Below are positions 24,940-27,981 of a DNA stretch of 64,000 nucleotides, in pieces (within the stretch, counting starts at the first letter, position 1; every line of letters begins with the position of its first letter). The stretch lies in NCBI RefSeq assembly GCF_009931435.1, contig NZ_CP043414.1. One strand, written 5' to 3'. The DNA comes from Escherichia coli (lineage in GTDB: Bacteria; Pseudomonadota; Gammaproteobacteria; Enterobacterales; Enterobacteriaceae). The position numbers and the translations under genes are program-made. The notes beneath the pieces are model-generated. The model saw only the letters and a program-made list of their open reading frames with translations, made no database searches and had not been told where the DNA came from.

Positions 24940-27789
24940 TTGAAATACCTTGCTTCTTTTCGTACAACCCTGAAAGCCTCGCGCTACATGTTCAGAGCAT
25001 TGGCGTTAGTGCTCTGGCTGTTGATTGCTTTTTCATCCGTTTTTTACATCGTTAATGCGTTGCATCAGCGAGAATCGGAAATTCGTCAGGAATTTAATCT
25101 GAGTTCCGATCAGGCTCAGCGCTTTATTCAACGCACCTCTGATGTGATGAAAGAGCTGAAGTACATAGCTGAAAATCGCTTATCGGCAGAAAACGGTGTG
25201 CTTTCGCCGCGTGGACGAGAAACGCAGGCAGATGTGCCAGTGTTTGAACCACTGTTTGCCGACTCCGATTGTTCCGCAATGAGTAACACCTGGCGAGGTT
25301 CTCTGGAGTCATTGGCGTGGTTTATGCGCTACTGGCGCGATAATTTCTCTGCGGCTTACGATCTCAACCGGGTATTTTTAATCGGCAGCGATAACCTTTG
25401 CATGGCCAATTTCGGTCTGCGTGATATGCCAGTGGAACGCGATACCGCGTTGAAAGCTTTGCATGAACGCATCAATAAATATCGAAATGCACCACAAGAT
25501 GATAGCGGCAGTAACCTCTACTGGATCAGCGAAGGTCCGCGCCCTGGCGTCGGGTATTTTTACGCCTTGACGCCAGTTTATCTGGCGAACCGGTTGCAGG
25601 CGCTTTTAGGTGTTGAGCAGACCATCAGGATGGAGAACTTCTTCTTACCTGGTACGTTGCCGATGGGGGTAACCATTCTTGATGAAAATGGTCATACCCT
25701 GATTTCGCTTACCGGACCGGAAAGCAAGATTAAGAGCGATCCTCGCTGGATGCAGGAACGTTCCTGGTTTGGCTATACGGAAGGGTTCCGGGAACTGGTG
25801 CTGAAGAAAAACCTGCCACCTTCATCGTTAAGCATCGTCTATTCGGTGCCGGTTGATAAGGTGCTGGAGCGCATTCGCATGTTGATCCTTAACGCGATTT
25901 TACTGAATGTGCTTGCCGGAGCCGCGTTGTTTACTCTCGCACGGATGTACGAGCGGCGTATATTCATTCCTGCGGAAAGCGACGCCCTGCGACTGGAAGA
26001 GCACGAGCAGTTTAATCGCAAGATTGTCGCTTCCGCGCCAGTGGGTATCTGCATTTTGCGTACCGCTGATGGCGTTAATATTTTAAGTAACGAACTTGCG
26101 CATACCTATCTCAATATGCTTACGCATGAGGATCGCCAACGACTGACGCAAATTATTTGTGGTCAGCAGGTCAATTTTGTTGATGTCCTGACCAGCAACA
26201 ATACCAATCTGCAAATCAGCTTCGTCCATTCGCGCTATCGTAATGAAAACGTGGCTATTTGTGTGCTGGTGGATGTTTCTTCGCGCGTGAAGATGGAAGA
26301 GTCGTTGCAGGAGATGGCACAAGCAGCGGAACAGGCGAGTCAGTCAAAATCGATGTTCCTTGCCACCGTAAGTCATGAGCTGCGAACGCCGTTGTATGGC
26401 ATTATCGGTAACCTGGATCTGTTGCAAACCAAAGAGCTGCCAAAAGGCGTCGATCGTCTGGTGACGGCAATGAACAACTCTTCCAGCCTGTTGTTGAAAA
26501 TTATCAGCGATATTCTCGATTTCTCGAAAATTGAATCAGAACAGTTGAAGATCGAACCGCGTGAGTTTTCACCGCGTGAAGTGATGAACCACATCACCGC
26601 CAACTATTTACCGCTGGTGGTACGCAAGCAGCTAGGCTTGTACTGCTTTATTGAACCGGATGTGCCAGTGGCCTTAAATGGCGACCCAATGCGTTTACAG
26701 CAGGTCATCTCCAACCTGTTGAGTAACGCCATAAAATTCACCGATACCGGCTGTATAGTTCTGCATGTTCGCGCTGATGGCGATTATCTCTCTATCCGTG
26801 TTCGCGATACCGGCGTGGGGATTCCGGCGAAAGAAGTGGTGCGCTTGTTTGATCCCTTCTTCCAGGTCGGAACGGGCGTACAGCGTAACTTCCAGGGGAC
26901 TGGTCTGGGTCTGGCGATTTGTGAAAAACTGATCAGCATGATGGACGGCGACATCTCGGTAGATTCAGAACCGGGAATGGGCAGCCAGTTTACCGTGCGT
27001 ATTCCGTTGTACGGCGCTCAGTACCCGCAGAAAAAAGGCGTGGAAGGGTTGAGTGGTAAACGCTGCTGGCTGGCGGTCCGCAATGCGTCGCTCTGTCAGT
27101 TCCTGGAAACCAGTTTGCAGCGCAGCGGCATCGTCGTTACAACATACGAAGGGCAGGAACCGACTCCCGAAGATGTGTTAATCACTGACGAGGTAGTGAG
27201 CAAAAAATGGCAGGGTAGAGCGGTAGTGACCTTCTGTCGTCGCCATATTGGTATTCCGCTGGAGAAAGCGCCAGGGGAGTGGGTACACAGTGTGGCTGCA
27301 CCGCATGAGCTACCGGCATTGTTGGCGCGTATTTATTTGATCGAGATGGAGAGCGATGATCCTGCTAACGCTCTGCCGTCGACGGACAAAGCGGTCAGCG
27401 ATAACGACGATATGATGATTCTGGTCGTGGATGATCATCCGATTAACCGGCGTCTGCTTGCAGATCAGTTGGGATCGTTGGGTTATCAATGTAAAACTGC
27501 GAATGATGGCGTCGATGCGCTTAATGTACTTAGCAAGAATCATATCGATATCGTGCTTAGCGACGTCAACATGCCAAATATGGATGGTTACCGCTTGACG
27601 CAACGCATTCGTCAGTTGGGGCTGACGTTGCCGGTAATCGGAGTAACTGCTAATGCGCTGGCTGAAGAGAAGCAGCGGTGTCTGGAGTCCGGTATGGACA
27701 GTTGCCTGTCGAAGCCGGTAACGCTGGATGTTATAAAACAGACACTGACGGTATATGCCGAGAGGGTCCGGAAATCGCGGGAATCGTAG
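24940..27789 (+). CDS. rcsC: Hybrid sensor kinase RcsC
   Basis: 949-aa ORF MKYLASFRTTLK...; H-box HELRTPL, C-terminal receiver domain; the ORF begins with a TTG codon. Confidence 0.93.
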   Translation: MKYLASFRTTLKASRYMFRALALVLWLLIAFSSVFYIVNALHQRESEIRQEFNLSSDQAQRFIQRTSDVMKELKYIAENRLSAENGVLSPRGRETQADVPVFEPLFADSDCSAMSNTWRGSLESLAWFMRYWRDNFSAAYDLNRVFLIGSDNLCMANFGLRDMPVERDTALKALHERINKYRNAPQDDSGSNLYWISEGPRPGVGYFYALTPVYLANRLQALLGVEQTIRMENFFLPGTLPMGVTILDENGHTLISLTGPESKIKSDPRWMQERSWFGYTEGFRELVLKKNLPPSSLSIVYSVPVDKVLERIRMLILNAILLNVLAGAALFTLARMYERRIFIPAESDALRLEEHEQFNRKIVASAPVGICILRTADGVNILSNELAHTYLNMLTHEDRQRLTQIICGQQVNFVDVLTSNNTNLQISFVHSRYRNENVAICVLVDVSSRVKMEESLQEMAQAAEQASQSKSMFLATVSHELRTPLYGIIGNLDLLQTKELPKGVDRLVTAMNNSSSLLLKIISDILDFSKIESEQLKIEPREFSPREVMNHITANYLPLVVRKQLGLYCFIEPDVPVALNGDPMRLQQVISNLLSNAIKFTDTGCIVLHVRADGDYLSIRVRDTGVGIPAKEVVRLFDPFFQVGTGVQRNFQGTGLGLAICEKLISMMDGDISVDSEPGMGSQFTVRIPLYGAQYPQKKGVEGLSGKRCWLAVRNASLCQFLETSLQRSGIVVTTYEGQEPTPEDVLITDEVVSKKWQGRAVVTFCRRHIGIPLEKAPGEWVHSVAAPHELPALLARIYLIEMESDDPANALPSTDKAVSDNDDMMILVVDDHPINRRLLADQLGSLGYQCKTANDGVDALNVLSKNHIDIVLSDVNMPNMDGYRLTQRIRQLGLTLPVIGVTANALAEEKQRCLESGMDSCLSKPVTLDVIKQTLTVYAERVRKSRES

Positions 27790-27981
27790 GCTTATAAGAC
27801 ATTTACGCCGCATCTGGCATTCAGTGCAAATGCCAGATGCGACGCTGGTGCGTCTTATCTGGCCTACTTTGTTGTAATCCATTGAAATAATGGGAATCGT
27901 AGGCCGGATAAGGCGTTTACGCCGCATCCGGCATTCAGTGCAAATGCCAGATGCGACGCTGACGCGTCTTATCTGGCCTAC
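27778..27981. repeat. Tandem REP/BIME duplication (two ~90-bp copies, 113-bp period) starting inside the last codons of rcsC
   Basis: gggaatcgtagg at 27779 and again at 27892; each followed by cgccgcatc(t/c)ggcattcagtgcaaatgccagatgcgacgctg..gcgtcttatctggcctac. Confidence 0.85.

Follow-up and report, generated by a model that had tools for sequence, protein, structure and literature searches.

REP elements and the rcsC/rcsB gap

Repetitive extragenic palindromes (REPs) are defined, among other features, by a conserved GTAG 5' of the foot of their hairpin, which reads CTAC on the inverted copy (PMC3333891). In type 2 bacterial interspersed mosaic elements (BIME-2), Y and Z2 REPs are joined by a short S linker and occur in tandem copies, the number of which varies between strains; BIME-2 linkers differ in length and sequence (PMC3333891). 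The tail-to-tail motifs flanking BIME-2 units are typed as s, l or r. Here we describe such an element in Escherichia coli, in the gap between the convergent genes rcsC and rcsB. We analysed it in a stretch of 64,000 nucleotides (64 kb) of contig NZ_CP043414.1 (assembly GCF_009931435.1), hereafter the window, and compared it with other E. coli genomes. According to the explanation that best fits the results, and that we hold to be very likely as a whole, the gap contains an allele of a known BIME-2 (REP162 of K-12) that goes back to an old tandem duplication, has changed its copy number recurrently, and provides REP hairpins that would form or protect the 3' ends of the flanking transcripts.

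Judged from its sequence, the element is the E. coli BIME-2 of the rcsC/rcsB gap and the allelic counterpart of REP162 of K-12 MG1655, i.e., of a kind that is already known. The name REP162 comes from a supplementary table (bioRxiv 10.64898/2026.03.23.713779), and the RefSeq record of K-12 lists no repeat feature in the rcsC/rcsB gap. Both alleles have the same order at the same locus: the rcsC tail, Y-S-Z2, a 16-nt linker, a copy of the rcsC tail, Y-S-Z2, six nucleotides and the rcsB stop codon. The gaps are nearly equal in length (199 bp in K-12, 198 bp in the window), and the linkers differ at five of 16 positions. The decayed REP is not the same in the two alleles. The proximal Y is decayed in the window (GCTTATAAGACA) and intact in K-12 (GTAGGACGGATAAGGCG), whereas the distal Z2 is intact in the window and altered in K-12 (GATAAGACACTAACG). 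The element behaves as its family does, and matters little beyond housekeeping.

Both units of the window consist of a Y REP, a 10-nt spacer and an inverted Z2 REP, and run from GTAG to CTAC. The two Z2 REPs and the Y REP of unit 2 are palindromes of 30-40 nt, the Y REP of unit 1 being the exception. The pairing of Y with inverted Z2 around a short S linker, the tandem arrangement and the strain-variable number of copies are all those of the published BIME-2 definition. The Rfam model naRNA4 (RF02564), named after nucleoid-associated RNAs, matched both units over their full length, unit 2 (27902-27978) with 84.3 bits on the + strand and 62.9 bits on the - strand, above the gathering threshold of 59.5, while unit 1 remained under it (50.9 and 36.4 bits, respectively). 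An earlier note on this DNA, written from its letters, had called the repeat REP/BIME sequence, and the anatomy, the published definition and the Rfam model all agree with this. The matches themselves should probably be read as "Y-Z2 REP pair" and not as a demonstrated RNA gene, since the family in effect models any such pair; annotation of the gap calls for caution on this point.

Other known systems share some features with the element. BIME-1 elements (also RIP or RIB) likewise place an inverted REP pair in an intergenic gap, but are single copies of Y and Z1 REPs with a long L linker that contains a site for the integration host factor (IHF). We rejected this identity: the IHF consensus WATCAANNNNTTR has no match within 27790-27987, the inverted REP is Z2 and not Z1, the inner linker is short (10 nt) and not of the L type, and the copies are in tandem. 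The REP325 array (naRNA1-6, between yjdM and yjdN) is built, as here, from Y-spacer-Z2 units in tandem, each 83 nt long and running from GTAG to CTAC, with a locus-specific tail-to-tail linker. Its Y REP is identical to that of unit 2 of the window, and the units are 89% identical. However, the six units of REP325 recur every 100 bp, are separated by a 17-nt linker (AAATTCCCGCACCCTCC) and are flanked by tandem genes, whereas the window has two units with a period of 113/114 bp between convergent genes, and a linker that includes a copy of the last codons of the upstream gene. The arrays also differ in the spacer, in loop bases and in one stem pair of the Z2 REP, which is GCCAGAT/ATCTGGC here and GCCTGAT/ATCAGGC in REP325, a compensated change. 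REPINs are REP doublets that fold as one long hairpin and are moved by a REP-associated tyrosine transposase (RAYT, or TnpA-REP). The units of the window are similar to them in the hairpin that spans the whole unit and in the GTAG feet for TnpA-REP recognition, but REPINs spread by dispersal to new loci, whereas here a local tandem duplication or deletion carries the flank of a gene.

The duplicated unit carries the end of rcsC

Two direct repeats, 27771-27867 and 27884-27981, about 90% identical and spaced by 113/114 bp, occupy nearly the whole 198-bp gap. The repeat finder returned them as two families in register, 27794-27867 against 27908-27981 (74 nt, 93%, spacing 114) and 27771-27791 against 27884-27904 (21 nt, 86%, spacing 113), which are a single repeat with a 1-bp indel. 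The mean column identity of copies 1 and 2 in a pairwise alignment is 89%, and their GTAG..CTAC cores are 90% identical. Copy 1 starts 19 nt inside rcsC, in its last five codons. The tandem duplication with a period of about 113 bp proposed in the earlier note is therefore real, as are its onset in the rcsC stop region and its extent across the gap. The same note had conceded that the second copy might be a misreading; it was recovered by both the repeat finder and the alignment. The proposed identity of 85-90% was also right (89-90% measured), but any two canonical Y-Z2 units show as much, which makes it weaker evidence than the note implied. Tandem Repeats Finder reported no 113-bp repeat at the gap. 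This is expected, because only about 1.9 copies are present and the 16-nt linker occurs once, and we dismissed this silence as counter-evidence.

The REP portion alone does not prove a local duplication, because copy 2 resembles a unit of the unrelated BIME-2 REP325 of K-12 (89% identity) as closely as it does copy 1 (90%). The proof lies in the copied rcsC tail, in the locus-specific spacer and Z2 stem variant, and in the allelic series described below. The tail of rcsC recurs in copy 2 (GAAATnnnGGGAATCGTAG), which reads GAAATAATGGGAATCGTAGG at the place of GAAATCGCGGGAATCGTAGG of rcsC. Its motif GAAATNNNGGGAATCGTAGG, which is not part of any REP, is present at exactly two places in the 64 kb, where 0.01 would be expected. 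The spacer GGCATTCAGTGCAAATGCC and the stem variant GCCAGAT/ATCTGGC are each found only at these two sites in the window. Two independent REP/BIME insertions side by side, alike only through the family consensus and without any local duplication, are extremely improbable. They would be in keeping with the near-equal likeness of copy 2 to REP325, and another array of the window happens to share the 113-bp period; but they leave aside the non-REP tail present twice, the spacer and compensated stem variant that both copies have and the rest of the window lacks, and the junction between the copies, which is unique in each genome. Moreover, chimeric one-copy alleles and three-copy alleles show homologous recombination between the copies.

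The tail within rcsC is the original and the downstream one is derived, since Pseudocitrobacter has the ending RES* with TCGTAG but no REP, and Erwinia has RES* too. The GTAG foot of the REP simply coincides with a pre-existing G+TAG stop of rcsC. The idea that the REP itself provided the stop codon and tail was rejected, given the same ending without REP in these other genera. The junction is not a generic mobile motif, given that each genome has a single one and plasmids have none. The polarity of the tail and the uniqueness of the junction thus substantiate the view, put forward in the earlier note, of a local amplification that carries the stop context of rcsC. Such a copied tail means that the array grew by local segmental duplication and not by transposition, and the position of the rcsC stop codon inside a REP foot should be kept in mind during annotation.

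The identity of the flanking genes is clear. The C-terminal 133 amino acids of the rcsC product are identical, or nearly so, to RcsC of E. coli and its relatives, and the RefSeq annotation of matching genomes names the counterpart of 24940..27789 rcsC. E. coli contigs encode the exact RcsB protein of the window, with rcsD and rcsC on either side. Table 1 gives the coordinates of the genes and of the parts of the array.

Table 1. Genes and repeat components at the rcsC/rcsB gap (positions in the window).
Feature	Position	Strand	Remarks	Source
rcsC coding sequence	24940..27789	+	949 aa; TAG stop 27787-27789	Open reading frame list
Motif A, final rcsC codons	27771..27785	+	GAAATCGCGGGAATC; source of the copied tail	
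Unit 1, Y-type REP	27786..27819	+	GTAG foot 27786-27789 holds the rcsC TAG stop	
Unit 1, short head-to-head spacer	27820..27829	+	TTCAGTGCAA; S-like	
Unit 1, inverted Z2-type REP	27830..27867	+	CTAC 27864-27867	
Inter-unit linker x, 16 nt	27868..27883	+	TTTGTTGTAATCCATT; specific to the rcsC/rcsB locus	
Motif A', copy of the rcsC tail	27884..27898	+	GAAATAATGGGAATC; 12/15 bases as in motif A	
Unit 2, Y-type REP	27899..27933	+	Intact; GTAG 27899-27902	
Unit 2, short spacer	27934..27943	+	TTCAGTGCAA	
Unit 2, inverted Z2-type REP	27944..27981	+	CTAC 27978-27981; 6 nt from the rcsB stop codon	
rcsB coding sequence	27988..28638	-	216 aa; stop codon 27988-27990	Translation
rcsD	28655..31327	-		

Both units are strongly structured. 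Over its whole length, each unit forms a single long hairpin by pairing of its two inverted REPs (-42 to -57 kcal/mol). The hairpins are strong on both strands (z from -5 to -10), and the whole gap is far more stable than its shuffles, with z of -9 and -11.5. Folded alone, the Z2 REPs reach -22.1 (+ strand) and -21.1 kcal/mol (- strand) in unit 1, with z about -6, and -21.4 and -21.9 kcal/mol in unit 2. The Y REP of unit 2 is as stable (-20.9 kcal/mol, z -5.2), while that of unit 1 no longer forms a self-standing palindrome (-4.3 kcal/mol, z 0.18). The tail-to-tail stretch of 31 nt between the units consists of the 16-nt linker and the 15-nt copy of the rcsC tail; it is unique to this locus and partly derived from rcsC. 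The linker is missing from one-copy alleles.

A change from CGC to AAT in the copied tail creates an ATG, which opens a mechanical open reading frame of 33 codons (27890-27991, + strand). This frame crosses unit 2 and terminates at a TAG that overlaps the rcsB stop codon. As it has no evident Shine-Dalgarno sequence, the frame is probably meaningless.

The window has a second BIME-2-like array at 39713-39943, with two matches to the Rfam naRNA4 model above the threshold on the - strand (39748-39830 and 39860-39943). The part from 39748 to 39943 has a period of 113 bp too, but its linker (GGGGTGGAGCACTTCACAGCGGT) and its 18-nt inner spacer are unrelated to those of the rcsC/rcsB array. The common period is a coincidence of similar unit sizes. 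Given these unrelated sequences and the genome-unique junction at rcsC/rcsB, we rejected the possibility that the linker is a canonical BIME motif of a 113-bp period. A palindrome at 39713-39745 has the arms of K-12 REP161 (eco/mqo gap, supplementary table) and a different loop.

Copy number differs between E. coli strains

Of the 5,426 complete E. coli genomes surveyed, 5,425 matched a 601-bp query that covers the gap, and the spans of the locus fell in two classes, 602 bp and 488 bp, which are one unit apart. Two or more units, scored by the 54-nt junction of copy 1, linker and copy 2, were found in 4,436 genomes (81.8%). The junction was absent from about 900-990 genomes (17-18%), which have either one unit or a disrupted locus. 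Altogether it matched 4,471 places, almost always a single one in each genome, and none of them was on a plasmid. Arrays of three or more units are rare: a synthetic query made of junction, unit and junction was matched over its full length, in one piece, in 32 genomes. Three units were verified in two loci (L083 and L084), where the gap has 313 bp. Among ten further contigs with an identical RcsB, gaps of 199 bp and 85 bp were present in a ratio of 8:2; this look-up by exact RcsB returned E. coli-type loci only. The earlier note had expected the copy number to vary between strains and had named an identical number in all E. coli as the result that would speak against its view. The variation is confirmed, with one, two and three units as well as partial forms, and the two classes of span contradict a uniform copy number.

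The surroundings of the gap (27590-28190) are about 95% identical to those of most E. coli genomes, 94.5% identical to K-12, and at least 99% identical to 64 records, which places the window in a minority lineage of E. coli. About 228 genomes carry its junction at 99% identity or more, including an O15:H18 strain of sequence type 69 (ST69).

Direction and age of the copy-number changes

Pairs of alleles on matching flanks reveal the direction of change. The one-copy allele L002 and the two-copy allele L092 have a flank distance of 0, and the unit of the former is copy 1 of the latter. Similarly, at a flank distance of 2, the one-copy allele L086 corresponds to copy 1 of the two-copy allele L094. 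At a flank distance of 1, the single unit of L087 is a chimera of the two-copy allele L099, with the 5' part of copy 1 and the 3' part of copy 2. One-copy alleles are therefore recurrent deletions, since they have copy 1 or a chimera of both copies on the same flanks as two-copy alleles. Such matched alleles indicate deletion by recombination between the units, and those sampled are the opposite of what one old one-copy clade with diverged flanks would show. Changes in the other direction also recur: the middle copies of L083 and L084 differ, so that three-copy alleles arose at least twice. Partial deletions are seen in L085 (isolate AF39, NZ_OZ547136.1), a "1.5-unit" allele with a gap of 166 bp from which the distal Z2 was deleted between two CAGATG microhomologies. 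Here rcsB is followed by the spacer and a Y REP in place of the Z2 hairpin.

The most divergent locus, L005, comes from a record labelled E. coli SCPM-O-B-8794. Its rcsC is 91.5% identical to that of the window, compared with 96.6% for K-12, and the record is probably, judged from its sequence, a separate species named E. coli. Its gap of 154 bp keeps a unit, the linker and the copied tail, while the second unit has collapsed to the palindrome GTAGGCCAGATAAG-GCATTCGGCA-CTTATCTGGCCTGC. Since this divergent lineage already has the two-unit layout, the duplication is old and two units are ancestral within E. coli. A one-copy ancestral state was rejected on this ground and because the one-copy alleles are copies 1 or chimeras on matching flanks.

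By comparison of the alleles, the array would have originated from one Y-Z2 pair abutting the rcsC stop codon, with TAG inside its GTAG foot. A tandem duplication of about 114 bp would then have copied the final 15 nt of rcsC together with the REP pair and a flank of 16 nt, before E. coli split from the divergent Escherichia lineage. As the alleles show, the resulting direct repeats of about 98 bp have since recombined unequally or slipped, repeatedly giving one-unit deletions, occasionally a third unit, and partial deletions. The locus is thus a clean and datable example of the growth and shrinkage of a BIME array.

One laboratory strain has lost rcsB. In E. coli BL21-RIPL (NZ_CP083273.1, L004), around positions 2900-3030 of the locus, a terminal inverted repeat of the insertion sequence IS1 (GGTGATGCTGCCAACTTACTGATTTAGTGTATGATGGTGTT) starts inside the 3' end of rcsB, directly behind the BIME. 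In the place of rcsB, annotation continues with a yfdF pseudogene and fadL. The sequence indicates that an IS1-mediated rearrangement removed rcsB.

REP hairpins as a possible substitute for a canonical terminator

We compared the gap with 67 outgroup loci among the matches listed, which include no Salmonella, E. fergusonii or E. albertii. In these other genera it usually has 33-130 bp and is free of REPs. A canonical terminator-type hairpin was present in 41 of the 67 gaps, 17 of which had both an A-run and a T-run, i.e., the bidirectional form. The consensus terminator scanner misses outgroup terminators in which A-run and T-run pair with each other, and an explicit test for A-run, hairpin and T-run was used instead. 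This test found no such element in the gap of the window, where the consensus scan returned one weak site inside a Z2 REP, equal to the expectation from shuffles. Bidirectional intrinsic terminators of convergent genes have the same position and presumed job as the REP hairpins of the window, but they have a U-tract, whereas these hairpins have none on either side. The gap therefore contains no intrinsic terminator in the sense of a GC-rich hairpin followed by a U-tract.

Some Citrobacter also have REPs in this gap (C. youngae, L006 and L063; C. werkmanii, L009). The arrangement is the opposite one: an inverted REP comes first, followed by a tail-to-tail linker that ends in ...GTTCGTAGG and by a REP. 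As it differs from that of E. coli, these REPs are independent acquisitions. This suggests that the convergent rcsC/rcsB gap may be a recurrent landing site for REPs.

Since the window lacks the canonical terminator hairpin that is common in other genera, its REP hairpins are the candidates for forming 3' ends. They would form and protect the 3' ends of the rcsC and rcsD-rcsB transcripts, with one bidirectional site per Z2. In this strain we infer such a role from measurements that others made in K-12 only. REP162 of K-12 has two mapped bidirectional terminators, at 2316832-2316874 and 2316942-2316985 (bioRxiv 10.64898/2026.03.23.713779, supplementary table). We found that their sequences are Z2 hairpins, one per unit, with 2316942-2316985 corresponding to the Z2 of unit 1 and 2316832-2316874 to that of unit 2. 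An influence on the 3' ends of both convergent mRNAs, which the earlier note had raised as possible, would agree with these K-12 data. In the same study, REP325 acted as a partial, partly Rho-dependent terminator and as an mRNA stabiliser, and convergent gene pairs with REPs were more highly expressed (bioRxiv 10.64898/2026.03.23.713779). Termination at the rcsC/rcsB gap would thus be non-canonical, through pausing and in part Rho, or the 3' ends might be the points where exonucleases stop.

Effects on translation and on DNA topology are also conceivable. REPs less than 16 nt downstream of a stop codon reportedly stall ribosomes (Liang et al. 2015, i.e., Liang, Rudd and Deutscher, as cited in PMC12306157). 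The array lies at 0 nt from the stop codon of rcsC, which is inside GTAG, and at 6 nt from that of rcsB, both below this distance. With both stop codons within 15 nt of a REP, translation termination might be damped. The units may in addition bind DNA gyrase, as BIME-2 elements do.

Several points weigh against the explanation we favour. In the study of the K-12 REPs, mRNAs with and without terminal REPs showed no general difference in half-life, with a wide spread of effects (bioRxiv 10.64898/2026.03.23.713779). Stalling near the stop codon of rcsC would, by the predicted folds, require the long hairpin of the whole unit, as the proximal Y REP no longer folds alone. The supplementary tables of gyrase sites (Sutormin et al. 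2019) do not mention rcsB or rcsC, although gene names are perhaps not used there. Finally, a simple tandem duplication predicts a copy of the linker after the last unit and does not explain what is seen: TTTGTTGTAATCCATT has no second occurrence in the 64-kb window, be it upstream of the rcsC tail or after the last unit. The linker is most likely the start of the original downstream flank, the distal copy of which was later deleted.

Other roles for the array

The array could be nothing but neutral, selfish or junk DNA, in which recombination lets the copy number drift and leaves the expression of rcsC or rcsB unaffected. Closely related backgrounds carry one, two or three units, and REPs decay singly (the Y of unit 1 in the window, the distal Z2 of K-12, the unit that collapsed in L005), as one would expect of such DNA; the lack of a genome-wide effect of REPs on half-life also agrees with it. 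Nevertheless, we think that neutrality is improbable, if far from negligible. Among the E. coli alleles read none has zero units, the shortest gap being 85 bp, and L085 is the only one that has not kept an intact Z2 hairpin beside rcsB. As the canonical terminator of other genera is missing, the 3' ends must be formed by something else, and those of K-12 map to Z2 hairpins. Alternatively, the main role might be at the level of DNA, the array being a strong gyrase site that would remove positive supercoils between the convergent transcription units, with a copy number that tunes the loading of gyrase. The location between convergent genes fits, and BIME-2 elements are enriched for gyrase cleavage in vivo, which prefers Y REPs and is independent of transcription (Sutormin et al. 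2019). Still, gyrase cleaves some BIME-2 elements and not others, the window has a decayed proximal Y REP, and rcsB and rcsC are not in the supplementary tables of that study. We regard gyrase loading as the main role as doubtful, though it deserves consideration; it is compatible with a role at the RNA level and the two do not exclude each other.

The remaining proposals are less probable still. Unit number might act as a regulatory switch, recurrently reset, that shifts the ratio of RcsC to RcsB between near-identical strains, by altering read-through, the protection of 3' ends or stop-codon stalling on the rcsC and rcsD-rcsB mRNAs. We find this unlikely. If true, the set-point of the Rcs envelope-stress and capsule response would shift between strains that are otherwise nearly identical, and a copy number that altered Rcs stoichiometry would offer a natural and inexpensive tool for work on a stress pathway that has been studied intensively. 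We give even less credit to the view that the units are genes of naRNA4-like nucleoid-associated RNAs that bind HU and condense the chromosome. This role was proposed for the units of REP325 (Qian et al. 2015), and unit 2 exceeds the Rfam threshold on both strands. But the family models any Y-Z2 pair, unit 1 is below the threshold, and a sequence scan found no promoter-like site in or near the rcsC/rcsB gap. In addition, the nucleoid role of the naRNA4 family is disputed, for REP325 itself too (bioRxiv 10.64898/2026.03.23.713779).

Other elements in the window

Another BIME arrangement is present at 4412-4492, downstream of an ORF: a tail-to-tail pair of a Y-type and a Z2-type REP that face outwards, with an 11-nt linker. 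Among the other Rfam matches above threshold are a tRNA and the leader of ribosomal protein L25 (56884-56957 and 60675-60700, both on the - strand). The antisense RNA MicF was identified just beyond rcsD (31639-31732, - strand, 116.8 bits). These matches fit what we take to be the ompC-micF-rcsD-rcsB-rcsC neighbourhood of K-12.

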